Source: an uncultured Planctomycetaceae bacterium (GTDB lineage Bacteria > Planctomycetota > Phycisphaerae > SM23-33). Taken from it: a stretch of 64,000 bases of DNA. The translations under genes and the position numbers were made by a program. Under the pieces are notes generated by a model. That model ran no database searches. It was given only the letters and a program-made list of their open reading frames with translations, and was not told the DNA's origin. The stretch spans positions 11,505 to 75,504 of the forward strand of contig CAYYMD010000001.1 of NCBI GenBank assembly GCA_964472875.1, written 5' to 3'. The stretch's first letter is position 1, and each line of letters starts with the position of its first letter. Shown piece after piece: positions 1-17,510 of this stretch.

Positions 1-172
1 CGACGCTCGCACCGCGCGCAATATTCTTTCGCAGATCCACCCGCCTGAACTGAAAACCTGAATCTCGACTCAAACCACGTGTTCAAAAAAAAACAAGGAT
101 CGTATAACAAGAAGGCTGCACTTTCAGCAATGTCACTCTGCCATTTATGTAGCCATTCCTACACCTGAAACG

Positions 173-213
173 TTGAATTGCTCTCCATGGTGCATAGAAT
201 GAAATGGTATAAT
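173..213 (+). promoter_or_regulatory. candidate sigma70-type promoter for nifU (extended -10 TGgTATAAT at ~205-213; weak -35-like TTGAAT at ~173-178 with poor spacing)
   Basis: Motif read directly ~37 nt upstream of the nifU ATG; not validated. Confidence 0.3.
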
Positions 214-249
214 CAGAATTAATGCAGTGAAATCCACGGCGAGAATAAC

Positions 250-1107
250 ATGTGGGAATATACGCAAAAAGTTAAAGATCACTTTCTCAATCCCCGCAAC
301 ACGGGCGAAATTGAGAATCCGGACCTGGACGCCACTGTTGGCAACATGGTCTGCGGCGACGCCCTGCGGATTATGATACGATTGGACGAGGAAGGCAAAA
401 TCGCCGACGCCAAGTTCCAGACGTTCGGCTGTGCCAGCGCCATCGCCTCCAGCGATGCGCTCGTCGAGGTTATCAAGGGCAAAACCGTGGATGAGGCCGC
501 CGAGGTATCCAACGACGACATTGCCGATTATCTCGGCGGACTGCCCAAGGCCAAACTCCACTGTTCTGTGCTTGGCATGGAGGCCCTCCAGAAGGCAATC
601 GCCAAATATCGCGGCCGGCCGTTCGACCTCGAAGAGGAAGGCGAAGTTGTCTGCCAGTGCTTCGGCGTCACGGACCGGCTGATAGAGAAGGTTGTCCGCG
701 AGCACGACCTCAAGACGGTGGACGAGGTAACACACTACACCAAGGCGGGCGGCGGATGCGGGTCCTGCCACGACAAAATCCGTGAGATCATTTCCAGGGT
801 TCAAGGCGAGACAGAAACGGCCCCCGCGCCAAAAGAGCATCCGGCCGGTAAGCCCATGACAAACCTCCAGCGAATCCGTCTTATAGACGAAGTCATCGCC
901 AATGAGATCCGCCCCATCCTGCGCAAGGATGGCGGCGACATCGAACTTGTGGACGTGGACGGAAAGAAGGTGCAGGTCGCCTTTCGCGGAAACTGCGCGT
1001 GGTGCCGCACGCGCGAATTCACAGCAGACAGCACCGTCGGCGCTAAACTGAGAGAACTGGTGGACCCACAGATAGTCGTGGATGACGTGAGCGAACGGCT
1101 TGAATAG
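250..1107 (+). CDS. nifU: Fe-S cluster assembly scaffold NifU, full three-domain form (IscU-like N-domain, central BFD-like [2Fe-2S] domain, C-terminal NifU/Nfu domain)
   Basis: IscU-like N-domain with three Cys (VCGDALRI, FGCASA, LHCSVL); central CQCFG...GGGCGSCHD; C-terminal NCAWCRTRE CxxC; cysteine desulfurase gene follows 19 nt downstream. Confidence 0.85.
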   Translation: MWEYTQKVKDHFLNPRNTGEIENPDLDATVGNMVCGDALRIMIRLDEEGKIADAKFQTFGCASAIASSDALVEVIKGKTVDEAAEVSNDDIADYLGGLPKAKLHCSVLGMEALQKAIAKYRGRPFDLEEEGEVVCQCFGVTDRLIEKVVREHDLKTVDEVTHYTKAGGGCGSCHDKIREIISRVQGETETAPAPKEHPAGKPMTNLQRIRLIDEVIANEIRPILRKDGGDIELVDVDGKKVQVAFRGNCAWCRTREFTADSTVGAKLRELVDPQIVVDDVSERLE

Positions 1108-1125
1108 TTTGAGAAGGTCGGGTAT

Positions 1126-2328
1126 GTGCGTATGAGCGAAGACGTTATATACATGGACAACAACGCCACCACTCGCGTGGCCGACGAGGTCCGAGAAGCG
1201 ATGGCGCCGTTTCTGAGCGAGTATTACGGCAACCCATCAAGCATTCACAATTTCGGCGGGCAGGTTGCCGCCCACGTGGACAAAGCCCGCCAACAGGTGG
1301 CACACCTGCTTGGCTGCCATCCTACCGAGATAATCTTCACCTCTTGCGGCACCGAGAGCGACAACACTGCTATACGAAGCGCGCTGGAGGTAAACCAGGA
1401 CCGTCGGTACATCGTAACCACCCGCATTGAGCATCCGGCCGTTCGGAATCTCTGCTTGAAATTATCCGATTCGCGGGGGCTGACGCCGCAGTATCGCCTC
1501 AGCGAAGTACCCGTCGACAGCCGTGGCTCACTGGCACTGCCGGATGTGGGAGATGCAATCAACAACGACACGGCCGTGGTCTCGGTCATGTGGGCTAATA
1601 ACGAAACTGGAAATATCTATCCTGTAGAAAAGATAGGTGCGATGTGCCGCGACCACGGCGTGCTGTTCCATACCGATGCTGTCCAGGCCGTGGGCAAAGT
1701 CCCAATGAATCTCTCGCAGACGCCCATCGACATGCTGAGTCTCTCCGGCCACAAACTTCATGCGCCCAAGGGCATAGGCGCCCTGTATGTGAGGCGGGGA
1801 GTGCGATTCAGTCCGTTTATGGTCGGCGGGCACCAGGAAAACAACCGCCGTGGCGGCACCGAGTCCGTGCCGCTGATCGTAGCCCTTGGCAAGGCCGCGG
1901 CAATAGCCGCACAACGGCTGGAAGACGAACAGACCCGCGTGCCGGCGCTGCGCGACCGCCTGGAGCGGGAACTGCTCGCACGCTGCCCCGACGCGCGCGT
2001 AAACGGCGACCCGGAACACCGCCTGCCGAACACCTCAAACATAAGTTTCGAATATGTTGAGGGCGAGAGCATTCTGCTGATGCTCAACGAGCACGGCATT
2101 TGCGCATCCAGCGGCTCCGCCTGCACCACCGGCTCGCTGGAGCCCAGCCACGTTCTTCGCGCCATGGGCATTCCATACACGGCCGCACACGGCTCGGTAC
2201 GGTTTTCGCTTAGTGTGTACAACACGGATGAAGAGGTCGACAAGGTCATCAAGGTGCTCCCGCCGATAATCCGCCGGCTGAGGGAAATCTCGCCGTTCGG
2301 GCGGGATTCCGTAAAAGCAAAGGCGTAG
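1126..2328 (+). CDS. nifS: cysteine desulfurase, NifS/IscS class (PLP-dependent)
   Basis: Class V aminotransferase signature: MDNNATTRV, SGHKLHAPKGIGALYVR (PLP Lys), HGICASSGSACTTGSLEPSHVLRAMG (active Cys); 400 aa. Confidence 0.9.
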   Translation: MRMSEDVIYMDNNATTRVADEVREAMAPFLSEYYGNPSSIHNFGGQVAAHVDKARQQVAHLLGCHPTEIIFTSCGTESDNTAIRSALEVNQDRRYIVTTRIEHPAVRNLCLKLSDSRGLTPQYRLSEVPVDSRGSLALPDVGDAINNDTAVVSVMWANNETGNIYPVEKIGAMCRDHGVLFHTDAVQAVGKVPMNLSQTPIDMLSLSGHKLHAPKGIGALYVRRGVRFSPFMVGGHQENNRRGGTESVPLIVALGKAAAIAAQRLEDEQTRVPALRDRLERELLARCPDARVNGDPEHRLPNTSNISFEYVEGESILLMLNEHGICASSGSACTTGSLEPSHVLRAMGIPYTAAHGSVRFSLSVYNTDEEVDKVIKVLPPIIRRLREISPFGRDSVKAKA

Positions 2329-2420
2329 CGGTGTCTAAAATGAAATGTAATCCCCGAAAAAGATGAATTCGTGGGCGGGTGATTGTAACCGGGTGTATAT
2401 CATCAAAGGATGTGATAAAA

Positions 2421-3158
2421 ATGCTCAAACCGCAATGCCCCGGACAGGACAGGAGATACTGGAAAGCCCAGGACGTTGTGGAGGAGCCATGCCCCTTCTG
2501 CGGCGAGGTGCTGGAATTATGGAAGGACGACGCCCGCCGGCGATGCAGCGGCTGCGGAAAGGTCGTCAGGAACCCGCACTTCGACATGGGCTGCGCCAAG
2601 TGGTGCAAGTTCGCCTCGCAGTGCCTGGGCATACCCGACTCGCAGGTCAGGGATGAGTCGCTGTGCGACCTGCTTATAAGGAAGATGCAGAAGGTCTTCG
2701 GTACCGACCAGCGCCGCATCCGCCACGCCTATCGCGTGCTGGATTTCGCCGAGCAGATACTGAACCGGCATGAAGCCGACCCGCTGGTGGTCATGGCCGC
2801 CGCCATTCTGCACGACATCGGCATAACCAAGGCGGAAAAAAAGTATGGATCTTCGGCCGGTAAATACCAGCAGATGGAAGGCCCGCCCATAGTCCGACGT
2901 ATACTCACCGAAGCCGGTGTGGATGAGCAGCGCACGAAACACATTTGCGGCATAGTAGGTGACCACCATTCCGCAGCACACATGAACACGCCGGAGTTCC
3001 ACATCCTGCGGGATGCGGACAATTTGGTGAACCTCTTCGTCGAGGCGGAAAAACCTTCCGCCAGGAATATTGGGGATGTCATCGACCGCGTCTTTAAAAC
3101 TGACGCCGGCAAAGAAATCGCCCGGCGCCTGGCGGACTCAAAACACACTGCGTACTGA
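2421..3158 (+). CDS. HD-domain metal-dependent phosphohydrolase with N-terminal Cys-rich zinc-ribbon region
   Basis: ORF is open from 2379 but ATG 2421 has an AGGA Shine-Dalgarno ~10 nt upstream. N-term CPGQ..CPFCG..CSGCG..CAKWC; HD motif AAAILHDIGI and downstream His-rich GDHHSAAH. Confidence 0.6.
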   Translation: MLKPQCPGQDRRYWKAQDVVEEPCPFCGEVLELWKDDARRRCSGCGKVVRNPHFDMGCAKWCKFASQCLGIPDSQVRDESLCDLLIRKMQKVFGTDQRRIRHAYRVLDFAEQILNRHEADPLVVMAAAILHDIGITKAEKKYGSSAGKYQQMEGPPIVRRILTEAGVDEQRTKHICGIVGDHHSAAHMNTPEFHILRDADNLVNLFVEAEKPSARNIGDVIDRVFKTDAGKEIARRLADSKHTAY

Positions 3159-3181
3159 ATAAAGTTACACATAAGCGGCTT

Positions 3182-3220
3182 GGAGGCATCGAAGGGCGCC
3201 AAAGACCTCCATTTTCTTAT
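3182..3220 (+). terminator. weak candidate stem-loop (ggagg...cctcc) plus T-rich tract after the HD gene
   Basis: Imperfect inverted repeat followed by attttctt; read by eye. Confidence 0.2.
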
Positions 3221-3627
3221 AAAGAAATATGAGCAATGACCATTCTTCGTCAGGACTCCGCCTACACTACAAATAAAAGATTCTATGCCATATAATGCGC
3301 TGCCGCTAGGTGCAATAATGAAAATACGAAAAATCATCCCGGCTGCAGAAACAACCTGGCAAACAGTTCCCGGCACCGCGATCTTGTCGAGAAGCATCGA
3401 AAATCGCTTGAAAAATTTATGCGGGAGACCGAAGATCCTGCTCTTCCTCTCTTTCTCAACCGTCACGACACCGATTTTTGCGAGAAGTTTATGAAATGAT
3501 GAGTGGCCTCTAAAGTTGACCCCACAATCCACCGCACAGCCAGGACAACGGCAAATTATTGCCTTGAGCGGGGGCTTGATTTTAACTACATATAAAAAGC
3601 TAAACACAAAGCAGAAGGGAGTTCCAA

Positions 3628-5058
3628 ATGATAAAGAGAAGAGTCTTTCTGAAAAACTCGATTTTAGCAGGTCTTGCCGCAACGGCTACAAGCAGCTTCG
3701 CGGTCACTGTGAAAAGACCCAATATCCTGTTTATCTTCATAGATGATATGGGTTTTGCGGACCCTTCCTGCTTTGGCAATTTCATGGTCGAAACTCCCAA
3801 CATAGATAAACTCGCCGCAGAAGGTACAAAACTAACCAATTTCTATGTAAACTCCCCTATATGCTCTCCTTCCAGGGTTGCGGTAATGACCGGTCAGTAC
3901 CCTCAGCGCTGGAAGATACATTCATACCTCTGCTCGAAAAAGAACAACGAGAAACGCGGCATGGCGGACTTCCTCTCGACCAGGGCCCCAGCTACTGCTC
4001 GGGAGTTGCAGAAAGTCGGTTACAACACCGCGCACTTCGGCAAATGGCACGTCGGCGGAGGCAGGGACGTGGACAACGCCCCGCTGCCCCAGGAATACGG
4101 ATTCGATGAATCTCTCGTTGCCTTTGAAGGTCTCGGAGACAGATTGATATATGAAGGGCATAGACTTTCTTCGCAAAGCGCAAAGTTGGGAAAAGGCGAA
4201 ATCATCAGGACAAAGAAACACAAGGGGACGAAACACTACGTCGACCGGGCATTGAAATTCATGGAAATGAGTAGCGACAAGGACGAGCCGTTCTATATTG
4301 AGCTTTTTCCGAACGATGTTCACGATAAACACAATCCTGAAAAAGGTTCCGCCGAAAAGTGGGAACAGGTAACTGAAAATCCATGGAAGCAGAAATTTTT
4401 TGCCGTCCTCAAAGAGATGGACCGCCAACTCGGAAGAGTGTTCGACAAAGTCAAGCAACTCGGCATAGCCGACAACACTCTTATCGTATTCACCAGCGAC
4501 AACGGTCCGACGGATTGGCGTTTCTACTATCGCGATGGTTGGTCACCGCCGGGATCCACGGGAAAATTCTACGGCCGGAAATGGAGCCTTTACGAAGGCG
4601 GCATAAGAATGCCGTTCGTCGCAAAATGGGAAGGCAAAATACCAACCGGCGCTATCAATACCAAGGCAATATGCGCGGGTATAGACCTTTCGCCAACATT
4701 CATTAATATTGCGGGCGCCGATGGCTCGGCAAAAAAGGATGGCGAGGATATCATGCCTGCGCTTCTCGGCAAGAAATTCGAACGGGCAAAGCCCATTTGC
4801 TGGCAATATGGAAAACCTTTCGCCAAATTGATGCCCGGTAATAAAGAATTCGTCAGCCCCTCTTTTGCGGCCAGAGACGGCAGGTGGAAGTTGCTTGTCA
4901 ATCCTGACGGGTCACATGTCCAGCTTTACGACCTCAGAGGCGACCCAAAAGAAACTATAAATCTGGCTTCACAAAAGCCGGAAAAAGTGAAACATCTTAA
5001 GAAAGAAATCAAGAACTGGGCACAAAACGTAGGAATTGCAGACAAGGTCATATTCTGA
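3628..5058 (+). CDS. sulfatase (arylsulfatase family, formylglycine-dependent) with twin-arginine (Tat) signal peptide
   Basis: N-term KRRVFLKNSILAGLAATA matches S/T-RRxFLK Tat motif; sulfatase signature SPICSPSRVAVMTGQYP (C-x-P-S-R FGly site); GKWHVGG; AGGGAG SD upstream. Confidence 0.85.
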   Translation: MIKRRVFLKNSILAGLAATATSSFAVTVKRPNILFIFIDDMGFADPSCFGNFMVETPNIDKLAAEGTKLTNFYVNSPICSPSRVAVMTGQYPQRWKIHSYLCSKKNNEKRGMADFLSTRAPATARELQKVGYNTAHFGKWHVGGGRDVDNAPLPQEYGFDESLVAFEGLGDRLIYEGHRLSSQSAKLGKGEIIRTKKHKGTKHYVDRALKFMEMSSDKDEPFYIELFPNDVHDKHNPEKGSAEKWEQVTENPWKQKFFAVLKEMDRQLGRVFDKVKQLGIADNTLIVFTSDNGPTDWRFYYRDGWSPPGSTGKFYGRKWSLYEGGIRMPFVAKWEGKIPTGAINTKAICAGIDLSPTFINIAGADGSAKKDGEDIMPALLGKKFERAKPICWQYGKPFAKLMPGNKEFVSPSFAARDGRWKLLVNPDGSHVQLYDLRGDPKETINLASQKPEKVKHLKKEIKNWAQNVGIADKVIF

Positions 5059-5245
5059 TTACGCCGAGGCATATTTTGGCATGGCATAGAGAGTATTCGC
5101 GAAGGTGCAAATTCTCCTAAGTATGGAAGAACAACATTAATGTCGAATTACGAAACCTGCCCGTCCGCCGTAGACGAAACATAAGGCAAAAATGTAAAGT
5201 ACTATAGAGTTAGGTTTTAGCCCATAGTACTTAATCATCGGAATA

Positions 5246-6526
5246 CTACTTCGTCAGTTCTTTCCAGAGTGCCTGCTCGGCCTCGTCGAATCTGGAAAAA
5301 GTATTTTGTATCTGTTCCTTAATCTTCAGCATCTGCGGATCGTCGGCGGGGATACCTTCCGGATGCGCCTTTATCAGTCCTGCAAGCTTTGCCATCGCCT
5401 GGTCGAGCTCAGATGCCCCGGCCGAGAACGCCCTGGCTGCATCGTGTATATTCTGCGAGCGAAGTTCCTTGTCCTCCGGCCTGTACAGCAACCGCCACGG
5501 ACTTCGGCGGATTTCCTTGCTGGCGGATTTAAGGTTGGCCGAAACCTGGGCCATGTTATCTATAATCTCATCCACGTTGCCACGATGCATCAGAACGATT
5601 TCCTTGGCGTTTTTGGAAACCGTACCGAAGTTCTTGACTATCTGGAGCACCTCGGTGTTGGTCTTTCGAAGTTTTTTGAGGATTTCAGCTACATCATCCT
5701 TGGTATAGGTTTCGATGGCCTTGGTCGTTTTGACTATCGACGTTAGAGACTTGTCTATTTTCGGCCGGGCATCGGTGGTTATTTTTTTTATGTTCGTCAC
5801 GGCCACGTGCACCTTGGCGATGATGGAGTCATCGCTTTCGCGGTCGAGTTCGGTGCGAATCGAGGTGGTTGCTTTGTTTATATCGGCTACACTCTTGCCG
5901 ATTTTGGCCAGCAAAGAATCCACTTTCTCCGGATTAGTCTCGTTTTTAAGCGTCTTGGTGATATCTTTGATATCAGTCATTGCAGTCTTCATGGTGTCGA
6001 CAATTTCATGAATCTTTGCAATCAGCGCATTTTTGACCTTGGGATTCATTTCCTGCTTGAGCGACTTTGAAATATCGTCGAGATTAGCCATAACCCCCGC
6101 GCGCCTGAGTGCTATGGGATGTTTCTCATCAGCCGGGGGTTTTTCGCTGCTACCCCTATCTGTTATTACCAACAGTCCCCCACCAATAGGCGGGACCTTA
6201 GCATGGGCCCGGCCATCAGTGTATATTTCCATTCCCTCCCGCTCTATCCTGGCTACGTAAATTGTTCTGCTGCGGTCAGGATCGAAATAAATTTTCGTAA
6301 TTTTGCCTATCGCGTCATCGTTGACTCTGACTTCGTTACCGACCTCCAGCCCGACCGAACCGGTGGATTCCTCCACGTAAAAGTGCGCCTCGGACGCCGT
6401 CGGCGCGAAAACCTCTGCCACGCCAAGCCATAGCACCACGGCAATGGTTACAAGTAACGCCGCTATAACAAAAATTCCCGCTATCAGTTCATTGTGTTGT
6501 TTTTTCGCCATGATGCTTGTCTCCAA
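5246..6526 (-). CDS. MlaD/Mce-family substrate-binding protein (single N-terminal TM helix, MCE domain, long C-terminal coiled-coil extension)
   Basis: N-term TM LIAGIFVIAALLVTIAVVLWL; MCE-like core GNEVRVNDDAIGKITKIYFD...GGGLLVITDRG; ~280-aa K/E/T-rich helical tail; immediately downstream of the ABC ATPase and permease. Confidence 0.75.
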   Translation of the reverse strand: METSIMAKKQHNELIAGIFVIAALLVTIAVVLWLGVAEVFAPTASEAHFYVEESTGSVGLEVGNEVRVNDDAIGKITKIYFDPDRSRTIYVARIEREGMEIYTDGRAHAKVPPIGGGLLVITDRGSSEKPPADEKHPIALRRAGVMANLDDISKSLKQEMNPKVKNALIAKIHEIVDTMKTAMTDIKDITKTLKNETNPEKVDSLLAKIGKSVADINKATTSIRTELDRESDDSIIAKVHVAVTNIKKITTDARPKIDKSLTSIVKTTKAIETYTKDDVAEILKKLRKTNTEVLQIVKNFGTVSKNAKEIVLMHRGNVDEIIDNMAQVSANLKSASKEIRRSPWRLLYRPEDKELRSQNIHDAARAFSAGASELDQAMAKLAGLIKAHPEGIPADDPQMLKIKEQIQNTFSRFDEAEQALWKELTK

Positions 6527-6537
6527 TGATTAATCGC

Positions 6538-7398
6538 CTAAGACTCTGATACTGCGCCGAGTATATCTTCACGATACCCGGTACTGAGACGTCGGCGTGT
6601 AATAGGCCCGTCAGAGTCGCCTCGCAAAAACTGGCGGATTAGCTCCGTGGTTTCATCATCCGTAGGAGGACCGTCGCGGATTTCTTCGAACTCTTGGCGC
6701 GCTCCTATTTTCAAAATACGGCCGGCGTCGAGCATGGCCATGCGGTTTGCAATGGTGAATGCCGAGTCCATCTCGTGCGTAACGACCACAGATGTAACGC
6801 CAAGTTTACCCGAAAGATCCTTTATCAACTGATCGATTTCGGCCGAGGTCACCGGATCGAGTCCGGCCGAGGGTTCATCGTAGAAAAGTATCTCAGGGTC
6901 AAGTGCTATCGCCCGGGCCAGGCCCGCCCGCTTTTTCATGCCGCCGGAAATCTGGGCCGGCATAAGGTCAACCGCCCGCCGCATGCCCACTAATTCAAGT
7001 TTTATCCGTACGATAATGTCTATCGTGGCCTCGTCGAGGTCGCTGTGCTCCTTGAGCGGAAGGGCCACATTCTCGCCCACGGTCATAGAGTTGAAAAGGG
7101 CTCCGGACTGAAACAGTATGCCGAAACGCTTTCGTAGCGCATCCATCCGCTCTTCATCAAGCGAGGCGATATCCCTGCCGAAAATCTCCACTCTGCCCTC
7201 ATTCGGCACAAGCGAACCGATCATATGCCTCAGCAGCGTGCTCTTGCCGCACCCGGAGCCGCCCATGATGACCATCGTCTCCCCCGGGTATATGTTCAGG
7301 TTAACGCCGTCAAGGACAGGACGTGAATCGAACCGTTTGACCAGGTCGATCACACTTATGACGGGCTCGGGTTTTTGGTTTTCTTCAGGCATATTCAA
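6538..7398 (-). CDS. ABC transporter ATP-binding protein, MlaF-like
   Basis: Walker A GGSGCGKST, ABC signature ISGGMKKRAGLARA, Walker B ILFYDEPSAGLD; typical MlaF-length C-terminal extension. Confidence 0.85.
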   Translation of the reverse strand: MNMPEENQKPEPVISVIDLVKRFDSRPVLDGVNLNIYPGETMVIMGGSGCGKSTLLRHMIGSLVPNEGRVEIFGRDIASLDEERMDALRKRFGILFQSGALFNSMTVGENVALPLKEHSDLDEATIDIIVRIKLELVGMRRAVDLMPAQISGGMKKRAGLARAIALDPEILFYDEPSAGLDPVTSAEIDQLIKDLSGKLGVTSVVVTHEMDSAFTIANRMAMLDAGRILKIGARQEFEEIRDGPPTDDETTELIRQFLRGDSDGPITRRRLSTGYREDILGAVSES

Positions 7399-7471
7399 TC
7401 CACGAATTACATTAGCCGGGCGGATCTCAGGAATTTTTCAGCCCATTAGTGAGATTCGCGTAATTCGTCAA

Positions 7472-8296
7472 TTACAAACCAAACACGTAAAATACCATGG
7501 TAAACACGCACGCGGCGGATATTATCGCAACGATAGAATAAACAACTGTCATCGTAGTGGCCCTTCCGACTCCCTCTGCCCCACCACGGACGCTGAGGCC
7601 CTCGTAACAGGCGATAAGTGAAATAAGCACACCAAACACGCCACCCTGGATCAATCCGGTGTAAAAATCGCGATACAGTATTTGCTCCTGCATCCGCTGC
7701 CAGTAACCGACATACACCCGCGGGCCAAGTACGCCCCAGGCCGTTAGCCAGCCGCCGAAACCTATGACCACATCCGCAACAACCGTCAACAGCACCATCA
7801 CAACCAGCGTCGCCAGTACGCGTGGAACGACCAGGTAGCGGATGGGGTTCATGGCCATTGTCTCCATGGCCTCTATTTCCTCGCCGACAACCATCGTGCC
7901 AAGCTCAGCCGCTATGGACGCCCCCGCGAAGCCGCTTAGAACCACCGCGGTTATTATCGGCCCGAGCATACGGAAGCCCGCCTTGCCGATTATCAGCGAG
8001 ACCTGGTGCTCCTGTCCGTAGACCTTCAGGGGCGGTGTCATCTGAAGTGCCAGTATTACTCCTATGAACACCTGGACCAGCGCTACGATTGGCAGACTTT
8101 TGAGGCCGACCCGCACAATTTGCTTGCTGACCGCTTCACCGCGCAGATGAACCTTCCGCGAGAATATTCCTTTGCCGGCCCATTGAAACGTGGTCCCACC
8201 CAGCAGCGACATTCCACCGGTGTATCGCACGGCCGTTAGGAACCGTCGCCCCACAGCCCGGACAAAATCACCCAACATTCGACCGGAAGAACTCAT
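7472..8296 (-). CDS. ABC transporter permease, MlaE-like
   Basis: Polytopic membrane protein of 274 aa with MlaE-like organisation; sits between the STAS gene and the MlaF-like gene. Confidence 0.8.
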   Translation of the reverse strand: MSSSGRMLGDFVRAVGRRFLTAVRYTGGMSLLGGTTFQWAGKGIFSRKVHLRGEAVSKQIVRVGLKSLPIVALVQVFIGVILALQMTPPLKVYGQEHQVSLIIGKAGFRMLGPIITAVVLSGFAGASIAAELGTMVVGEEIEAMETMAMNPIRYLVVPRVLATLVVMVLLTVVADVVIGFGGWLTAWGVLGPRVYVGYWQRMQEQILYRDFYTGLIQGGVFGVLISLIACYEGLSVRGGAEGVGRATTMTVVYSIVAIISAACVFTMVFYVFGL

Positions 8297-8646
8297 GCAG
8301 TCATCGCCTCGTCAATACTATCGCAAATCTTAAAAATACCGTTAAGTCGTGTTATTTCGAAGAGACTTTTGACCCGAGGATTCAGGCCGGCCAGTACGAT
8401 TTTTGCGCCTGTCTTCCTGCTTCGCGACAGCAGTTTCACAAGCGACGCCAGGCCGGATGAGTCCATGTAGTTCACGCCATGCAGCGAAATCACAATACGC
8501 TGCGGGTTGCTGTTTAGAATTTTCAGCACCTCCTGCTGAAACGCCACACTGGAGGACATGTCGATATCACCTGTTGCGCTGACGATCGCGGTGGCGTCTT
8601 TCCAGTCGACTGACTCTATCGGTTGATTCACTGGAGTCTGGCTCAC
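8293..8646 (-). CDS. STAS-domain protein (anti-sigma-factor antagonist / MlaB-like) with canonical phosphorylatable Ser
   Basis: SpoIIAA-like fold motif VNYMDSSGLASLV (DSSG phospho-Ser motif); 4-nt overlap with downstream permease start and 4-nt overlap with upstream kinase stop. Confidence 0.8.
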   Translation of the reverse strand: MSQTPVNQPIESVDWKDATAIVSATGDIDMSSSVAFQQEVLKILNSNPQRIVISLHGVNYMDSSGLASLVKLLSRSRKTGAKIVLAGLNPRVKSLFEITRLNGIFKICDSIDEAMTA

Positions 8647-9146
8647 TTTAGCTCCTTCGAATCTGATGGTTCAAGCTGCTTTTCCATGGTCAGGACGGTC
8701 CCTCCGCCCTCGGCCGGATTGTATTCCACCCGGTCCATGAATTCTTTCATTATGTGCACGCCGAGCCCGCCGGGACGCACCTCGCCAAGGTCGCGAGATC
8801 GGATACGTTCTGCATCCACGTGTTTGCCGTAATCGCGTATGCGAATCCGCAATCCTCCCGGCGGCGCGGACAGCGGCGCCAGTTCGACCTCGATTCGCCC
8901 GTCGCCGGCACCGTCGTAGGCATGCCGGATAATATTGGTCAGCGCCTCATCCACGCTGACGCTGGCGCCGTGGGCGCCGTCTTCGTCAAAGCCGACCATA
9001 TTGCAGAAACGCCCCACCGCAGCCCTGACTACAGGCAGGTGCTCGGCCACCGACATTATCGTTATGCCAACAGTTTTATCCGCAAGTTCACTCATTTTGT
9101 TGTTTTTCTTTGGCCGGCCGTGTCCGGGGACCGGATGTTTTTTCAA
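8643..9146 (-). CDS. anti-sigma regulatory factor-type serine protein kinase (RsbW/SpoIIAB-like GHKL ATPase)
   Basis: N-box EALTNIIRHA; G-boxes IRIRDYGKHVD and RPGGLGVHIMKEFMD; alternative ATG at ~9095 (MSELADK) would remove overlap with upstream gene. Confidence 0.75.
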   Translation of the reverse strand: MKKHPVPGHGRPKKNNKMSELADKTVGITIMSVAEHLPVVRAAVGRFCNMVGFDEDGAHGASVSVDEALTNIIRHAYDGAGDGRIEVELAPLSAPPGGLRIRIRDYGKHVDAERIRSRDLGEVRPGGLGVHIMKEFMDRVEYNPAEGGGTVLTMEKQLEPSDSKELK

Positions 9147-9468
9147 GCCACCGACGCCAGCGTCTCACGGCCTCTGCCCGTTTGCAGGCGTCTTCATAAT
9201 GACAGTAGCCCATATTCTGCCCGGTAATTTTTCTCAGGGCCATTATTGCAAAAAATCGGACATCCGCCTCACTGTCCGTGAGACGGTCAACGAGAAAAGG
9301 CAAGGCCTTCTTGTCGTCGGTCTTTGCAGCCAGCTTGACGGCCTCGATTCGCCTGTCAGGGTCTTCAGACTGCAGGCCCTTGTAAATATCCATGTTACTT
9401 TCGGCACAACCACCGATTATGCACGTCACGTATATCTGCAAGAAACAAAACTTTCGAAATATGCTCAT
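9088..9468 (-). CDS. HEAT-repeat (PBS-lyase type) lipoprotein
   Basis: Lipobox-like CIIGGCAES after hydrophobic N-term; HEAT repeats DPDRRIEAVKLAAKTDD / DSEADVRFFAIMALRKITG. Confidence 0.5.
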   Translation of the reverse strand: MSIFRKFCFLQIYVTCIIGGCAESNMDIYKGLQSEDPDRRIEAVKLAAKTDDKKALPFLVDRLTDSEADVRFFAIMALRKITGQNMGYCHYEDACKRAEAVRRWRRWLEKTSGPRTRPAKEKQQNE

Positions 9469-9533
9469 GTCCGGGCCCTGCTTATTTCACGAAACGTAAT
9501 TACGGTAAGATTATAACCCACGGGCGTCTGGGT

Positions 9534-10220
9534 TCAACGACTGATGTTATATCGTTTTTTTATTTTCGTAACATATTCGTGTGCCCTGCGCGTCGGCTCG
9601 GGCAATCTTACGCCTTTAGCGGCACGTAGAGTCCAGCGTATTGCGTCCTCAAGCGTAACTCTGTGGCCCACCGAAACATAGACCGGCTTGACCGCCGTTC
9701 TCGTGCGCAGCACCGCTCCGATTACCCTGCGCTCGTGTCGAAGTTGTGTGCGGCAGCGGCGCTTTTGGCCCGGTGGGCGATGTTCACCCACAAGGCGGCT
9801 CTTGGCCACACCTATTGTGGGCACATCCAGCCAAAGTCCAACATGGCTGGCCAGGCCAAGCCCGCGGGGGTGAGCAACACCCTGCCCGTCACACATAAGC
9901 AGGTCGAAGGCGGGCATTTTCTTCAGCGCAGCGATGACAACCGGTGCCTCGCGAAAGGACAGCAGTCCCGGAACATACGGAAACTCACATGGCATGGCCG
10001 CCTCGGCGTCCGAGATTATTTCCATGGAGCCCGCTCTGCACAGCACTGCAGCAGCGATTATTTTTTTGCCGCCCTCGACAAACGCACAATCCACTCCCGC
10101 CACAGTGCTAACCTTTTTTCGCAACGGCGTCACGCGGACCTTCCCGGCCAGTTCGCGCTGAAGCGCTATCGCCTCCTTAGGTGTTACATCCCAGCGATGA
10201 TTTACATTTAGGCCAGGCAC
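9534..10220 (-). CDS. nfi: endonuclease V (deoxyinosine 3' endonuclease)
   Basis: YVPGLLSFREAPVVIAAL, DGQGVAHPRGLGLASHVGLWLDVPTIGVAKSRL, GHRVTLEDAIRW match the EndoV family. Confidence 0.8.
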   Translation of the reverse strand: MPGLNVNHRWDVTPKEAIALQRELAGKVRVTPLRKKVSTVAGVDCAFVEGGKKIIAAAVLCRAGSMEIISDAEAAMPCEFPYVPGLLSFREAPVVIAALKKMPAFDLLMCDGQGVAHPRGLGLASHVGLWLDVPTIGVAKSRLVGEHRPPGQKRRCRTQLRHERRVIGAVLRTRTAVKPVYVSVGHRVTLEDAIRWTLRAAKGVRLPEPTRRAHEYVTKIKKRYNISR

Positions 10221-10250
10221 AATTCTCGACCTGCAATCGGCGTTATCCTG

Positions 10251-11078
10251 CTACTTAATACCCAGCACGTCCTTCATGGAATACAGCCCCGGCTTCTGCC
10301 CGGTCACCCACCCGGCCGCACGAAGGGCGCCTCGGACGAAAACATCCCGCGTGTGGGCCGAATGTCCCAACGTTACAGTCTCGCCCAGCGAGCCGAACCG
10401 AATTGTGTGCTCGCCAACTGTGTCGCCCAGCCGTACGGCGTGCATGCCTATCTCGCCTTTTTTTCGCGGACACTGGCCACCGCGGCCAAAAGTTACGGTT
10501 TCGCCGTACTCCTTATCAGTGGCGCTGCATATGGACTTGGCCAGCGCTGCGGCGGTGCCGGAAGGTGCGTCTTGTTTGAATCGGTGGTGTGTTTCCGATA
10601 TTTCAATGTCGTAATCCTCTCCGAGCGCACGAGCAACATCGGCCACGAGTTTCAAAAGCAGGTTCACCCCGGGCGAAAAATTAGCCGCCTTGACGATGGG
10701 AATCTTTGCAGCGGAGTCGGCAACTTCCGCCTGTTGCGATTCGGTCAGTCCTGTAGTGCCGATAACCATCGCCACTCCGTGTTCCCTGCAAACCTCAAGC
10801 CAGTGCATCGCACCGGCGGGCGTGGAAAAGTCAATCAGCACATCGGGCTGGTCACGAAGAGTTTCGGTAACATCGAGACCGAATGGCCCGACCCCCGCCA
10901 GTTCGCCTATGTCACCGCCTATTGCCTCGTGTCCCTTCTCTTCCAGGGCCGAGACAATATCGTATTGCTCGGATTCTATCGCCAGTGCGGCAATCCGTCG
11001 TCCCATGCGTCCTGCCGCACCGGTAATCGCTATCTTTAACATTATTTGCTCCTGTGAAATTTTGTGTTTGTTGTTCAA
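10251..11078 (-). CDS. dapB: 4-hydroxy-tetrahydrodipicolinate reductase
   Basis: KIAITGAAGRMGRRI NAD(P)-binding N-term; catalytic ETHHRFKQDAPSGTA motif; true start possibly internal Met (MLKIAITG, ~11042). Confidence 0.85.
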   Translation of the reverse strand: MNNKHKISQEQIMLKIAITGAAGRMGRRIAALAIESEQYDIVSALEEKGHEAIGGDIGELAGVGPFGLDVTETLRDQPDVLIDFSTPAGAMHWLEVCREHGVAMVIGTTGLTESQQAEVADSAAKIPIVKAANFSPGVNLLLKLVADVARALGEDYDIEISETHHRFKQDAPSGTAAALAKSICSATDKEYGETVTFGRGGQCPRKKGEIGMHAVRLGDTVGEHTIRFGSLGETVTLGHSAHTRDVFVRGALRAAGWVTGQKPGLYSMKDVLGIK

Positions 11079-11177
11079 TTATACATTTTTCATTACACAC
11101 TCATATCATCGATTCGGGCTTTCTGCAACCGACGGCATTTCGCTATTACTTGCAATTTCGCCATCGATAAATAAACT

Positions 11178-11912
11178 TTGTCCGTTATGGCTGTTTTAAT
11201 AATACCTGCGCGATACTCCTCGAAGCGGCTCCCGGGCAAGGCACTGCTGGCCGAAACGGGCAAACCGCTCATCCAGCACGTAGTTGAGTCGGCGGCCCCC
11301 GCCGAGCGCATCTCTCGCGTAGTGGTAGCTACCGACGACGAACGAATCAGGGATGCTGTAATCGGCTTCGGCGGCGAGGCGATTATGACGGAACAAAAGC
11401 ACCGATGCGGTACCGAACGCGTGGCCGAGGCGGCCGGCAAACTTGACATAGGCGAAGATGAAATTGTTGTAAATCTCCAGGGCGATGAGCCGGATATGCC
11501 GCCGGCGGGCATTGATACGCTGGTTCGGTTGCTGGATGAAAGCGACGCTCCGATGGCGACGCTGGCCTGCCCGCTGCCGGCACAAGAGGTGAATCAGCCA
11601 CACAGAGTAAAAGTAGTCTGTGACATAAACTCCAAAGCGTTATATTTTTCACGGGCGCCGATACCGTTCGACCGCGACTCTTTAGGCGGCGTGCAGCATC
11701 TGCTGCATCTGGGTATTTATGCATATCGCGCGTGGTTCCTGAGGCGTTTGGCGCAATTGGACCAGACCCCTGCCGAGAAAGCGGAGAAACTCGAGCAACT
11801 GCGGGCGCTGGAGAACGGTTTTGAGATAATCGTAGGCCTGGTCGAATACAATTACCATGGAATCGATACTATAGAAGATTACCACATGTTCGTGGCCAAC
11901 CATACTCAGTAA
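11178..11912 (+). CDS. kdsB: 3-deoxy-manno-octulosonate cytidylyltransferase (CMP-Kdo synthetase)
   Basis: IIPARYSSKRLPGKALL, NLQGDEP, ALYFSRAPIPFDRD are characteristic of KdsB. Confidence 0.85.
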   Translation: MSVMAVLIIPARYSSKRLPGKALLAETGKPLIQHVVESAAPAERISRVVVATDDERIRDAVIGFGGEAIMTEQKHRCGTERVAEAAGKLDIGEDEIVVNLQGDEPDMPPAGIDTLVRLLDESDAPMATLACPLPAQEVNQPHRVKVVCDINSKALYFSRAPIPFDRDSLGGVQHLLHLGIYAYRAWFLRRLAQLDQTPAEKAEKLEQLRALENGFEIIVGLVEYNYHGIDTIEDYHMFVANHTQ

Positions 11913-11939
11913 TTAACATTATTTGATGAGGATATAAAA

Positions 11940-12353
11940 ATGGCGGAAAACGAGAATAAAAAACAGGAAAAAGCCAAAATAATCGCCGACGATGATTGGA
12001 AGTCGCAGGCCAAGGCGGAAAAAGAGAAACTGGCCAAGGAAGTGGAATCAAAGCAGGCCGCTGCCGCCCAGGGTAAGGGCGGCACCGGGCAGCAGCGCGA
12101 ACTACCCCCGGCCAGTTTTACGTCGCTGGTCAATTTTCTTGGAGCCCAGATTATGTTCGCCCTGGGCGGCATGCAGGACCCGAAATCGCAAAAACGATAC
12201 GTTGACCTGAACCTGGCCAAGCACTATATAGACACTCTCGAGGTCCTTGAAGAAAAGACCAAGGGCAATCTAAGCGATGAGGAAAAACAGCTTCTCGACC
12301 GCATTCTGTACGAAACGCGGATGAACTACGTGCAGTTGGCACAGCAGATGTAA
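11940..12353 (+). CDS. small conserved hypothetical protein (DUF1844-like; K/E-rich N-term, conserved C-terminal helical core)
   Basis: 137-aa ORF with clean codon usage; SFTSLVNFLGAQIMFALGGM motif; no function inferable. Confidence 0.45.
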   Translation: MAENENKKQEKAKIIADDDWKSQAKAEKEKLAKEVESKQAAAAQGKGGTGQQRELPPASFTSLVNFLGAQIMFALGGMQDPKSQKRYVDLNLAKHYIDTLEVLEEKTKGNLSDEEKQLLDRILYETRMNYVQLAQQM

Positions 12354-12357
12354 ACGG

Positions 12358-13455
12358 CTATTTGCGGCTGGCGATTCTTTTCGTTTCTTCCATGACTGCA
12401 TTGACTATTTCGCCAACCGATATGGTGCGGATTTTTTGGCCGCGTCGGTATAAAACTGCCTTCTCGGCCCCGGCAGCGCAGACTGCTATGTCGGCATTAT
12501 CCGCCTCTCCCGGTCCGTTCACTACGCATCCCATCACTGCTACTGTCAACGGCACCTGCACGTCGGCCAGTGCCTCCTGTACTTTCTCCACTATCGGCAG
12601 CAATTCCATCCGTACCCGTCCACAGGTCGGGCATGCGATAATCTCCGGCCGCAGCCGTGGGCGAAGACGAAGACTCGCCAATAGCTCCACAGCGACACGC
12701 ACCTCCGTCACCGGATCACCCGCAAATGATAGCCGTATCGTATCACCTATGCCTTCGCTCAGCAGTGTTCCCACCGCCGCAGCCGACCTGACCACCGCCG
12801 TTTGAACAGGACCGGCGTGGGTTACGCCCAGATGAAGAGGGTAATCCCACCTCTCGGCCAGCAAGCGATTGGCCGCGACGGTTGTGAATGCGTCACGACT
12901 CTTGGCTGAAAGCACAATGTCGTTAAAATCCGCCCGTTGGAATTCCTCCAGGTATTCTTTAATTTTATCGGCCATGAGTTCCTCCAGTGGCCGGGACATA
13001 TCCGCCGTTCTGCGGGCCGAGTCCTTCCTCTCTACTACAGACCCTTCATTTACTCCAACGCGTATAGCCACCGAGTTATCGGCAGCGGCGGAGATGACTT
13101 CTCGCAACTGAGCAGGGTTAGATATATTTCCCGGGTTGAGGCGTATTTTTGCGGCCCCTGCGCTGATCGCCTCCAGGGCGCGTCGGTAATTAAAGTGTAC
13201 ATCCGCTATTATTGGCGTCGGCGAACGATCGACAATCTGCTCAAGGGCCTTTGTATCGTCCCTCGTGGGGACAGCGACGCGAACCAGATCGGCCCCAGCC
13301 TCTGCCAGCTGCTCAACCTGCGCGCAGGTCGCCTCAACGTCGGTAGTAGCGGTCTTGGTCATACTCTGAACGCTGACCGGTTCTCCGCCTCCGATGGCTA
13401 CCCCCCCAACCTGCACGCAACGGGAATCGCGCCTTTTTATGCGTGGATATTGCAC
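12358..13455 (-). CDS. ispG: 4-hydroxy-3-methylbut-2-en-1-yl diphosphate synthase (MEP pathway, GcpE)
   Basis: RRDSRCVQVGGVAIGGGEPVSVQSMT N-term; IIACPTCGR and MGCVVNGPGE Fe-S ligand motifs. Confidence 0.9.
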   Translation of the reverse strand: MQYPRIKRRDSRCVQVGGVAIGGGEPVSVQSMTKTATTDVEATCAQVEQLAEAGADLVRVAVPTRDDTKALEQIVDRSPTPIIADVHFNYRRALEAISAGAAKIRLNPGNISNPAQLREVISAAADNSVAIRVGVNEGSVVERKDSARRTADMSRPLEELMADKIKEYLEEFQRADFNDIVLSAKSRDAFTTVAANRLLAERWDYPLHLGVTHAGPVQTAVVRSAAAVGTLLSEGIGDTIRLSFAGDPVTEVRVAVELLASLRLRPRLRPEIIACPTCGRVRMELLPIVEKVQEALADVQVPLTVAVMGCVVNGPGEADNADIAVCAAGAEKAVLYRRGQKIRTISVGEIVNAVMEETKRIASRK

Positions 13456-13541
13456 AAAATTATCATACCCCCCTCACGTGACAAATAAAAGAGGCCGCTT
13501 TTGCAGCCCCTTTCGGTGAATCTTTGCTCATCTGGAAGAAT

Positions 13542-13781
13542 CTAAGCCCCGACCAGCTGAGTGCGGGCATGATGGCGGAAAGAAAGAACAAGATTCTTTG
13601 TCGACGCGCCTTCGCCCGAACCGGTGCACAAACGCGGCGAACGGGCTATATGAAGATGGCGGAGGTACTCATCGAGGTCTTCCTGGTCGAATTGAGCCAG
13701 AAATTCCGGCTTAGCCGAACGGTTCATGTTCAGTATCTGATCGATTGTCTGTCGTTTTGTCATTTTAGTATCCTTGCACAC
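13542..13781 (-). CDS. possible small hypothetical protein (79 aa) in the ispG/methyltransferase divergent spacer
   Basis: ORF only; helical-looking TIDQILNMNRSAKPEFLAQFDQEDLDEYLRHL segment; no recognisable family. Confidence 0.2.
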   Translation of the reverse strand: MCKDTKMTKRQTIDQILNMNRSAKPEFLAQFDQEDLDEYLRHLHIARSPRLCTGSGEGASTKNLVLSFRHHARTQLVGA

Positions 13782-13950
13782 TTAGAAAATATTTCAGAGA
13801 ACCACGAATTCTCTGGAATTTATCGGTTCACAGGCCATGATAACTTTAGGCCCAACGATTTCTGTTCACTCAAGTATTACTGGTTTGATGGACGAAATAC
13901 TTGTATACTGAAAGCATCAACAAGGAAGGCAAACCACACCAGGACAAGAC

Positions 13951-14838
13951 ATGAATATTGATACCTCGGATATAAATTTTGAGCGCCACGGGTCTGTTAG
14001 GAAAATTTTAAAGCGCTCGATGGTGAATCCACTGGCCAATTACCTGCCCGCCGGATTACTCAGGGGCCTTCTGCGTTTCGGTAAAAGTGAACTGGCCGCG
14101 GCGAACTGGACCGACCCTGGCGGTTGGAAGAGCATGATAATCAGCTACACCGGCAGGACCAGCCAGGTAGCCGACATACTGCTGCTTGCCGGTGGCACAC
14201 TTCATATGGCCCTGCGAAACCGCAGGCGACTGGCCGGAAAGATGCTTTCGGAACTTATAGACTCCAGCTCCAGCAAAAAACCGCACTTGCTTTCTCTCGG
14301 TGCCGGTCCGGGCCAGATTATCTTAGACGCCCTCTCGCAGGCAAAGTCTCCCGCAGAAGCAACTATGGTTGACCTTAATCCTGAGGCGTCGGATTATGGC
14401 CGCCAGCTGGCCGCGGACGCCGGTCTGGAAGACAGGATATATTACATAGTCGGCGACGTCCGAGATGTATCGGAGATGCTCTCCAAGCCGCCTGACGTAG
14501 TCGTCATGCTCGGGATATGCGAATACCTGACGGACCACCAGATCAGCAGTATCGCCAAAACGGTCTCAGAAGTTATGCCACATGGCTCATCGATTGTGTT
14601 TAACAGCATTTCGCCCGCCCACGGCACTGACAGGTTCTTCAGGCGGATATTCGGTCTGCATATGAATTACCGCACACCACAGGAATTGCAGAAATTGATC
14701 GGAGAGGGGGGATTTGGAGAGTTTGCCTCGATTCCCGAACCCCTCAACGTGTATCATGTTGTTGTAGGCCAGAGGCAGAAAATCTACACGCGGCAAGAAA
14801 ATACTGAACGTTCCCAAAACAGCGTGGTGAGCAAATAA
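13951..14838 (+). CDS. class I SAM-dependent methyltransferase
   Basis: Motif I LLSLGAGPGQ, acidic motif II TMVDLNPE, motif III IYYIVGDVRD, VVVMLGICEYL. Confidence 0.7.
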   Translation: MNIDTSDINFERHGSVRKILKRSMVNPLANYLPAGLLRGLLRFGKSELAAANWTDPGGWKSMIISYTGRTSQVADILLLAGGTLHMALRNRRRLAGKMLSELIDSSSSKKPHLLSLGAGPGQIILDALSQAKSPAEATMVDLNPEASDYGRQLAADAGLEDRIYYIVGDVRDVSEMLSKPPDVVVMLGICEYLTDHQISSIAKTVSEVMPHGSSIVFNSISPAHGTDRFFRRIFGLHMNYRTPQELQKLIGEGGFGEFASIPEPLNVYHVVVGQRQKIYTRQENTERSQNSVVSK

Positions 14839-14872
14839 ATCCACGCACCCTGTTAATAAGGGCGCCCGTCAA

Positions 14873-16207
14873 ATGGCCAACGTATCACTACCCTGGAATA
14901 AAGGCGAAATCACACTGGATCTTCCGCAAAACTGGACGGTTCAGCAGACCGCTACTCCTAACCTGCCCAAGGCGCCTCAGGACTGGCGCGAACGTCTGGC
15001 CAGGGCGTGCGCGCGGGGAGAACCCGGAGATTCTTTGTCCGAACTTGCGACGGAGGCCGCCAGACATAACTGGCCAGTGGCTCTTATCGTCGAAGACCTC
15101 ACAAGACACAGCCCCCTGGCGGATATAATGGACATCCTCATGCGGGAAATGCGTCACGCGGGAGTGAAGGACGAACAGATAGAGATTGTATTTGCCGTGG
15201 GCATGCATCCGCCCATGACACCCCCGCAAGCTCGTGAGAAATTGGGGGCTTCATGTGATGGGGTTAAATTCACCAGTAACCCCTGGAATGACCCGACAGC
15301 ATACAAACACCTGGGGAGAATCGGGAAAACCGAAGTCTGGGTCTATCGCCCAGTGGCAGAAGCACAACTGCGCTTAGTTGTATCTTCAGTCTCACCGCAC
15401 CTACAGGCAGGTTTCAGCGGCGGATATAAAATGATTTTTCCGGGCTGCGCGAACCTGAAAACCATTCGTTCGCTGCATAAACTCGGAGTAAGCTCGACAC
15501 CGCGGCAATTAGTCGGCACGGATGCAGACCGGAATCCGATGCGCGAGACCTTAGACGCCGCCGGCGAACTGCTTGACCGCCACGGTGGTCGTACATTCAC
15601 TGTACAATATCTTCTGGATGATAAGGATATGCCGGCAGTAATCGCCACAGGGGCCGCCACTCCGACCCAGCGTATGCTTGCCAAGCAATGCGCCGTGGGA
15701 TGCGGGACGGTCATGGACGCTCCCTCCGATGTCCTCATTACAAACGCATATCCCCGCAATGTCGACCTGTGGCAATCGTTTAAGTGCATTATAAACACCC
15801 TGTGGGCGCTGAAACCCAATGGTGTGATAATATGCACCACCCCCTGCCCCATGGGTACAAATAACATGGATATCCCGCGCTGGCCTATCAGCGCGGCATG
15901 GACGCGGCGGTTTATACGATTGCTGGGACACGAGGCGCTGTATAACCTGCTTACGCGACTGGTGCCTTCACTGGGCGGAGAAGCGGAATTTTTTGTACGC
16001 ATGGCTCTTCAGACCATACATCGTAACCCCGTATTATTGGCCTCTCCCACCCTTGCCGAACAGCAGCTCCGTTTTCCGGCGATGGAAATTTACGCGCAGC
16101 CCCAGGATGCCGTTGAGGCGGCTGCAAGACTCCTTGGTGACGGCCCGCAGCGTGTATCAGTATTCCCTGCCGGAGGAATTACTTTCCCGGTTATGCCGTC
16201 GCAGTAA
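14873..16207 (+). CDS. LarA-like protein (lactate racemase / DUF2088 family; nickel-pincer-cofactor enzyme family)
   Basis: ~440 aa; VSPHLQAGFSGGYKMIFPG resembles the LarA His...GF-GG-K cofactor-tethering region; substrate unknown. Confidence 0.55.
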   Translation: MANVSLPWNKGEITLDLPQNWTVQQTATPNLPKAPQDWRERLARACARGEPGDSLSELATEAARHNWPVALIVEDLTRHSPLADIMDILMREMRHAGVKDEQIEIVFAVGMHPPMTPPQAREKLGASCDGVKFTSNPWNDPTAYKHLGRIGKTEVWVYRPVAEAQLRLVVSSVSPHLQAGFSGGYKMIFPGCANLKTIRSLHKLGVSSTPRQLVGTDADRNPMRETLDAAGELLDRHGGRTFTVQYLLDDKDMPAVIATGAATPTQRMLAKQCAVGCGTVMDAPSDVLITNAYPRNVDLWQSFKCIINTLWALKPNGVIICTTPCPMGTNNMDIPRWPISAAWTRRFIRLLGHEALYNLLTRLVPSLGGEAEFFVRMALQTIHRNPVLLASPTLAEQQLRFPAMEIYAQPQDAVEAAARLLGDGPQRVSVFPAGGITFPVMPSQ

Positions 16208-16221
16208 AATCAGAAAATACT

Positions 16222-17475: not shown

Positions 17476-17510
17476 ATCCGCTTCACCGCAATTTTTGAGT
17501 TTGGCGGATT
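17475..17510. terminator. candidate bidirectional terminator: inverted repeat aaatccgc...gcggatt between convergent PP2C and folE genes
   Basis: 7-bp perfect inverted repeat with ~21-nt interior, T-rich middle; read by eye. Confidence 0.3.

Follow-up and report, generated by a model that had tools for sequence, protein, structure and literature searches.

We analysed a 64,000-nucleotide (nt) stretch of contig CAYYMD010000001.1 from an uncultured Planctomycetaceae bacterium (hereafter 'the window'), following up an initial annotation of a six-gene cluster within it. The six open reading frames (ORFs) follow one another in the same direction on the minus strand, from position 9468 down to 5246, and encode in order a HEAT-repeat lipoprotein, an RsbW-type serine kinase, a STAS protein, and the permease (MlaE), ATPase (MlaF) and MCE protein (MlaD) of an Mla-type lipid ATP-binding cassette (ABC) transporter. 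All six lie where the initial annotation had put them, and Pfam and NCBIfam matches back every assignment. With slightly better than even confidence, we favour the view that these genes specify a phosphorylation module of the partner-switch type that is coupled to an Mla/MCE lipid ABC transporter instead of a sigma factor. The predicted functional tie between the switch and the transporter is well supported, because the kinase gene is kept beside those for STAS and MlaE in related genomes and because contexts with fused PP2C-kinase genes repeat the link. Coordinates, start codons and domain scores are collected in Table 1.

The junctions between the genes were read directly from the sequence. 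The HEAT and kinase genes overlap by 8 nt (ATGAGTGA), and the kinase/STAS and STAS/MlaE junctions are the 4-nt overlaps described initially, with GTGA at the first and ATGA at the second. Measured from ATG starts, gaps of 79 nt and 26 nt separate MlaE from MlaF and MlaF from MlaD, respectively.

More than 1000 close homologues of the kinase were found, and the first three contexts from relatives (kinase identity 53–61%) all contain the same six genes. A scan of one genome per species gave at least 584 loci with a kinase relative, the best 80 of which (39–59% identity to the window kinase) were examined by searching the six window proteins against each. Planctomycetota accounts for 77 of the 80 (Phycisphaerae, Sedimentisphaerales, Pirellulales, Planctomycetales and Isosphaeraceae), these being the submitters' labels on metagenome-assembled genomes (MAGs); the closest named database relatives among the matches listed are Phycisphaerae MAGs. 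The counts that follow take only loci with enough flanking sequence, and their denominators differ for that reason. STAS lies directly after the kinase in 76/78 loci, MlaE comes after STAS in 68/73 and a HEAT gene stands before the kinase in 69/76, which bears out across Planctomycetota the proposal that the kinase belongs beside the transporter. The proposed six-gene linkage, however, holds only in part: MlaF–MlaD directly follow MlaE in 25/55 loci, and we therefore regard HEAT-kinase-STAS-MlaE as the conserved unit. The window operon is the fully clustered form of this core. In three loci (L035, L039 and L050) MlaF–MlaD are found 3.5–4 kb upstream; no MlaE accompanies them there, and the locus has no other than the one linked to STAS. 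The remaining neighbours of the module differ between loci, but the four-gene core stays in most. The commonest junction type is the 4-nt overlap (HEAT/kinase 35/70, kinase/STAS 30/78), which also occurs at STAS/MlaE in at least 15/67 loci; start codons in the related loci were inferred from alignments, so that these overlap counts are approximate. One locus (L064, 8001-9267) has MlaE directly after the kinase with no STAS gene detected. A chimeric STAS+MlaE query, used to look for natural fusions of the two, was uninformative, as the 120 matches listed are all unfused MlaE orthologues.

Table 1. Genes of the kinase-STAS-Mla operon and associated features, in window coordinates.
Feature	Position	Strand	Evidence and remarks
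HEAT-repeat lipoprotein, 126 aa	9088..9468	(-)	HEAT_2 37.5 bits
RsbW/SpoIIAB-type serine protein kinase, GHKL fold, 150 aa	8643..9095	(-)	HATPase_c_2 86.5 bits
Kinase start codon, ATG (alternative TTG at 9146)		(-)	sequence
STAS protein, single-domain, anti-sigma-factor-antagonist type, 117 aa	8293..8646	(-)	GTG start; STAS 77.7 bits
MlaE-family ABC permease, 274 aa, five hydrophobic segments	7472..8296	(-)	Pfam MlaE 214 bits; hydropathy profile
MlaF-type ABC ATPase, 284 aa	6538..7392	(-)	ATG start, alternative TTG 7398; ABC_tran 110 bits
Long MlaD/MCE protein, 421 aa	5246..6511	(-)	ATG start, alternative TTG 6526; MlaD 28.9 bits
Promoter-like site TTGAAC-16 nt-TATAAT, possible operon start	9510..9537	(-)	between endonuclease V and HEAT genes; consensus scan 10/12 matches
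GAF-SpoIIE (PP2C) phosphatase, 417 aa	16222..17475	(+)	SpoIIE 151 bits, GAF 72 bits; 7 kb from operon, outside it

The best solved relatives of the kinase by sequence are RsbW (E 4.6e-14) and SpoIIAB (1.6e-8), and its scores against the RsbW/SpoIIAB equivalog models of NCBIfam fall below their cutoffs (59 vs 145, 52.5 vs 155 and 52.7 vs 135 bits). The N box (DEAxxNxxxHAY), G1 (RDxG) and G2 (PGGLGxHI) motifs are invariant in 28 homologues. In the STAS protein, the canonical DSSG motif reported initially was located at 8452-8463, and [M/I]DSSG is found in all 78 aligned STAS orthologues. The predicted phospho-acceptor is the first serine of the motif, Ser63 (codon 8458-8460), which we take to be equivalent to SpoIIAA Ser58. 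We likewise match this residue to MlaB Thr52, with which it aligns (MlaB numbering from PMC5016091, PMC7367683).

The initial annotation had proposed to compare the STAS protein with MlaB and with RsbV/SpoIIAA, and hidden Markov models place it with the latter. It scores 85.3 bits against TIGR00377, the anti-sigma-factor antagonist family (cutoff 53.45), a model which all 33 orthologues tested also match. Against the MlaB model NF033618 it reaches 36.9 bits and misses the 90-bit cutoff; 32/33 orthologues give weak matches to this model, the best with an E value of 1.5e-9. When the STAS family profile is compared with solved structures, it finds TM1442 at 8.5e-27 and SpoIIAA and RsbV at ~1e-17, a range of E 1e-17 to 1e-27, with MlaB far weaker at 1.4e-4. 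Because the TIGR00377, TM1442 and RsbV matches are strong and the MlaB match is weak, we classify the protein as a canonical phosphorylatable antagonist of the RsbV/SpoIIAA type and not as an MlaB orthologue.

Turning to the transporter, the permease scores 198 bits against TIGR00056, just under the 212-bit cutoff, and the best NCBIfam match of the ATPase is PRK11831 (MlaF) at 217 bits, which misses the equivalog cutoff of 441. The ATPase aligns with Pseudomonas aeruginosa MlaF (7ch8_I, E 8e-61) through to the C-terminus, where 'irqflrgdsdgpitrrrlstgyredilg' in the window protein is matched with 'irqfvkgipdgpvpfhypardyradllg' in 7ch8_I. This C-terminal extension (~6541-6642) bears the Tyr...Ile-Leu 'handshake' residues, and the motif RQFLxGxxxGP...[Y/F]xx[D/K][I/L][L/I/V] is kept in most of 35 MlaF orthologues. 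In Escherichia coli MlaF, the corresponding Tyr261, Leu265 and Leu266 insert in a groove between MlaF and MlaB (PMC7367683). The MlaD-like protein clears the Pfam MlaD model (PF02470; cutoff 25.1 bits) and matches TIGR00996, the MCE family, at 46 bits. It has one N-terminal hydrophobic segment (residues 5-39, a transmembrane helix), followed by the MCE domain and a tail of ~286 amino acids (aa) with few Pro and Gly residues. A single-sequence AlphaFold2 model of low confidence (predicted local distance difference test score, pLDDT, 51) makes residues 157-420 almost all helix. The length of the tail is close to the ~280 aa given initially, but its description as unusually long does not stand, since the long form is usual among MlaD homologues, making up 85% of them at a mean length of 374 aa (PMC10665443), and the orthologues in our related loci are mostly 372-484 aa.

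The HEAT protein has a signal peptide with a lipobox cysteine (Cys21), after which comes a short alpha-solenoid. A hydrophobic N-terminus and a nearly invariant Gly-Cys recur in ~70 HEAT orthologues, on which grounds we predict that it is an exported lipoprotein. Its AlphaFold2 model, in which five helices come after the signal peptide, has a mean pLDDT of 83 and reaches block means of 95-98 between residues 31 and 110. A fold search with this model returned nothing but generic matches (to alphaRep, HEAT and importin), all at E values of 1e-3 or above, and so gave no functional clue. A HEAT-kinase fusion (P0302) was rejected as an indel artefact, the same contig also having STAS (201 aa) and MlaE (226 aa) proteins of odd length; it therefore provides no evidence for a cytoplasmic HEAT protein.

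A partner switch also calls for a phosphatase, and the GAF-SpoIIE protein encoded at 16222-17475 is a candidate, as yet unproven, for acting on phospho-STAS. Its gene neighbours a LarA-like gene (14873-16207) and a methyltransferase gene (13951-14838), and the protein shares 37% identity with a GAF-PP2C protein encoded close to the module in one related locus (L033). GAF-SpoIIE genes come within reach of the module in only a few of the loci, and in two of them (L056 and L067) a separate gene of this kind lies immediately upstream of kinase-STAS-MlaE. A kinase profile search of 1.84 billion cluster representatives yielded 167 kinase clusters at E <= 1e-30, the best 150 of which were checked against Pfam. 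Among these best 150 of the 167 are four GAF-SpoIIE(PP2C)-kinase fusions of 520-587 aa (P0324, P0327, P0359 and P0397) and two kinase-STAS fusions (P0273 and P0325). The genomic contexts of such fusions repeat the arrangement in the window. Three metagenomic contexts, L088, L090 and L091 (with duplicates L089 and L092), encode GAF, PP2C and RsbW-type kinase domains in one polypeptide of 560-587 aa, and in L090 this is followed, tightly packed, by STAS-MlaE-MlaF-MlaD. L091 has the same order and then an ABC_trans_aux (PqiC-like) lipoprotein, and L088 continues with STAS-MlaE up to the contig end, its MlaE being 37% identical to that of the window. In L093, which shares the DapB-endonuclease V synteny of the window, the order is HEAT-[kinase-STAS fusion]-MlaE-MlaF-MlaD. 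Every STAS protein of L088, L090, L091, L093, L056 and L067 has [M/I]DSSG. The fusion of phosphatase to kinase implies that the output is probably carried by the STAS protein and not by the kinase, which is also the case for SypE/SypA.

The six genes with their overlaps and conservation, the canonical motifs of the kinase and the invariant STAS serine are shown directly by the sequences, whereas the mechanism that we favour is inferred and would work as follows. Unphosphorylated STAS would serve as an MlaB-like cytoplasmic accessory of an MlaF2E2D6 complex, its helical face docking on MlaF beside the C-terminal 'handshake' and permitting assembly or ATPase activity. The kinase would bind the same face of STAS and phosphorylate Ser63, so that STAS would be released from the transporter and transport lowered. 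A GAF-PP2C phosphatase, whose gene lies elsewhere in the genome of the window and in relatives neighbours the kinase gene or is fused to it, would reverse the Ser63 step. The HEAT lipoprotein may be a small protein-binding module which probably touches the periplasmic side of MlaE/MlaD, as an accessory or a sensor. This mechanism draws on the conserved gene order, the fused architectures, the intact motifs of kinase and STAS, the handshake extension of MlaF, the published effects of changes at MlaB Thr52 and the lack of a conserved sigma factor gene near the module in the ~80 loci.

Several observations weigh against this mechanism. Kinases of the RsbW type usually bind a sigma factor, and the gene for one could lie elsewhere. 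The STAS protein is of the RsbV/SpoIIAA type, matches MlaB weakly and has 117 aa vs the 97-residue E. coli MlaB chain. Where the cluster is split, as the 25/55 count for MlaF–MlaD implies, STAS stays with MlaE and not with MlaF, unlike a pure MlaF partner. MlaE is missing after STAS in ~5/73 loci (L012, L022, L058, L060 and L062); in the first of these (L012, 8001-9971), which has neither MlaE nor HEAT, the gene that comes after kinase-STAS encodes an alanine dehydrogenase. The kinase clade is, moreover, not tied exclusively to Mla, because in L095 (a Verrucomicrobiae MAG, JAFAPM010000473.1) a GAF-PP2C-kinase fusion adjoins, by a 4-nt overlap, the gene for an Rce1-like (CPBP) membrane protease on a short contig with no STAS or Mla genes. 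Finally, Veillonella, which is without MlaB, still has an MlaF C-terminal extension (PMC10665443), so that the extension is no proof of a STAS partner.

As noted initially, no sigma factor gene adjoins the operon, which is flanked by endonuclease V and DapB genes upstream and by a convergent sulfatase gene downstream. No sigma factor was found among the 38 window ORFs scanned, nor is there a conserved sigma factor gene near the module in the ~80 loci. A gene for a FliA-like group-3 sigma factor (with sigma-70 regions 2, 3 and 4) does lie ~1-3 kb downstream of MlaE on the opposite strand in four of them (L037, L047, L048 and, more distantly, L042), which probably reflects clade synteny. If signals were to run the other way, the Mla-like complex and/or the HEAT lipoprotein would sense envelope or lipid stress and set the kinase/STAS balance, with the kinase inhibiting a distant sigma factor or other regulator. 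The canonical RsbW/RsbV-type sequences of the kinase and STAS would fit such a scheme, as would the FliA-like genes, the retention of STAS by the membrane protein MlaE rather than by the ATPase, and the HEAT lipoprotein, which is conserved, exported and translationally coupled to the kinase, and would suit an input device. We nevertheless consider this rival, though a serious one, unlikely, given the lack of a conserved sigma gene in the loci and the scanned window ORFs and the resemblance of the phosphatase-kinase fusions to SypE-type systems, whose output is carried by STAS and not by the kinase. We also know of no partner switch that takes its input from an ABC permease, which counts further against it. 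The initial annotation had offered both phospho-regulated lipid trafficking and an envelope-stress sensor; conservation supports the tie between switch and transporter that these ideas share, whichever way the signal may run.

More doubtful still, in our judgement, though likewise serious, is the possibility that the kinase itself is an anti-transporter factor which binds and inhibits MlaF or MlaE, unphosphorylated STAS removing the kinase and never sitting on the transporter. The gene set and its conservation would be the same as for a STAS subunit, the kinase is of the size of SpoIIAB/RsbW, which sequester a partner, and an RsbV-like rather than MlaB-like STAS would be in keeping with that role. 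Sequestration would, however, come less naturally to the kinase domain of a 520-587 aa GAF-PP2C-kinase fusion. The 4-nt coupling of STAS to MlaE suggests, instead, that STAS synthesis is matched to that of the permease, as would be expected of a subunit, and the conserved handshake residues of MlaF point to a protein docked at the MlaB position. That a generic partner-switch pair merely sits in front of mlaE by inherited synteny is very improbable, for although the DapB-endonuclease V flank is common to the window and some relatives, so that some synteny is simply inherited, and ~5 loci are without MlaE, the flanks vary in most loci around a constant four-gene core, the order is intact down to 39% kinase identity, overlapping stop/start codons recur, and divergent contexts rebuild the link with fused phosphatase-kinase genes.

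The arrangement, with STAS read as a transporter subunit, can be compared with the MlaFEDB systems of E. coli, P. aeruginosa and Acinetobacter baumannii. They have in common MlaE, MlaF with its handshake extension and an MCE protein. Both also include, within the operon, the gene for a small STAS protein of one domain, whose helix alpha-2 begins with a Ser/Thr (Ser63 in the window, Thr52 in MlaB). Unlike MlaB, the STAS protein described here is of the RsbV/SpoIIAA type, with 117 aa and DSSG, and its gene is upstream of mlaE, whereas that of MlaB is last in the operon. The cluster also lacks MlaC and MlaA, has a long-type MlaD and an added HEAT lipoprotein, and contains a dedicated kinase gene, none being known for MlaB (PMC7367683, PMC5016091). 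In E. coli MlaB, Thr52 is at the centre of the MlaF-MlaB interface; MlaF is bound less well by the T52E variant, ATPase activity is lost with T52A, and both E. coli papers propose phosphoregulation of MlaB with no kinase known (PMC5016091, PMC7367683). The MlaE-MlaF-long MlaD core without MlaA/MlaC, and the helical periplasmic tail of MlaD, recall the minimal MlaEFD of the Veillonella parvula type (PMC10665443). The same survey reports the Planctomycetes-Verrucomicrobia-Chlamydiae (PVC) group to be without the beta-barrel end and MlaB to be rare outside Proteobacteria, scoring it in 1/16 Planctomycetes genomes of its dataset, and the kinase and HEAT lipoprotein go unmentioned there (PMC10665443). 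Its dataset also includes the MlaE-F-D genes of Planctopirus limnophila (MlaE, ADG67891).

On the signalling side, the module resembles the SpoIIAA-SpoIIAB-SpoIIE and RsbV-RsbW-RsbU/P switches of Bacillus subtilis in its pairing of a GHKL kinase of ~150 aa with a DSSG/DSTG STAS protein, encoded by adjacent overlapping genes, and in the presence of a PP2C (SpoIIE-family) phosphatase in the genome, which in relatives lies beside the kinase or forms one protein with it. It differs in having no sigma gene in or near the operon, in being locked to the genes of an ABC permease and an exported lipoprotein, and in that its proteins miss the RsbW, SpoIIAB and SpoIIAA equivalog cutoffs. Partner-switch modules with outputs other than a sigma factor include Bordetella BtrU/V/W and P. 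aeruginosa HsbR/HsbA. Others are Vibrio fischeri SypE/SypA (PMC10120452, PMC4517449) and Anabaena HenR/All4160/Alr3423 (bioRxiv 10.64898/2026.04.08.717354). Such modules would share with ours a phosphorylatable STAS protein as the effector, a kinase and PP2C that may be fused, and outputs at the envelope or in secretion, but the predicted target here is instead an MCE/Mla lipid ABC transporter.

An Mla system with a STAS subunit, partner switches with non-sigma outputs and a long MlaD are each already known. In the literature we found no partner-switch module described with an MCE/Mla lipid ABC transporter as its output, and no description of the kinase-STAS-MlaE linkage or of a dedicated kinase or phosphatase tied to an Mla/MCE transporter. 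We judge the chances to be evenly balanced that this is the first natural case of an MCE/Mla transporter with a serine kinase and a PP2C phosphatase of its own that switch it by acting on a STAS subunit. The operon family offers candidates for the kinase and the phosphatase together with a canonical phospho-acceptor, all tied to transporter genes, which makes the idea of Mla phosphoregulation testable. If the reading is true, an ABC lipid transporter would join the short list of non-sigma partner-switch outputs, phosphoregulated lipid trafficking between both membranes would be a widespread mechanism, and the proposed phosphorylation of Thr52 in E. coli MlaB would have an evolutionary precedent. 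The module also suggests a conserved lipoprotein as periplasmic partner of Mla systems in the Planctomycetota, a phylum whose cell envelope is unusual.

The promoter-like site upstream of the HEAT gene is weak evidence for an operon start, because such sites are no commoner in the region than in shuffled sequence; the scan of the region for promoters and terminators as a whole gave nothing above shuffled expectation. There were no Rfam matches in window positions 1-20000 and no meaningful repeats in the region. Genes for envelope and isoprenoid functions lie near the operon, namely those for a KdsB-like CMP-KDO synthetase (11178-11912), a DUF1844 protein (11940-12353) and IspG/GcpE (12358-13455), and the KdsB-like gene suggests that the organism makes lipopolysaccharide. 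On the other side, at 2379-3158 (+), is a gene for a 259-aa HD-domain protein whose N-terminal region is rich in Cys, with CPxC...CSGC-type spacing.

The remainder of the window consists mostly of a ribosomal protein, RNA polymerase and EF-Tu region together with housekeeping genes. Two of these ORFs are longer than the domains they encode: the SecY ORF (24604-26175, (-)) has 523 aa, with a Pfam match from residue 144 only, and the L17 ORF (19708-20403, (-)) has 231 aa, with its domain ending at residue 129. The excess in both is either over-called starts or real terminal extensions. Further along, at 56331-58223 (-), a 630-aa signalling protein combines PocR sensory, GAF and HD_5 (HD-GYP-like) domains, and its gene adjoins those for a type II/IV secretion ATPase and platform (52819-55882).

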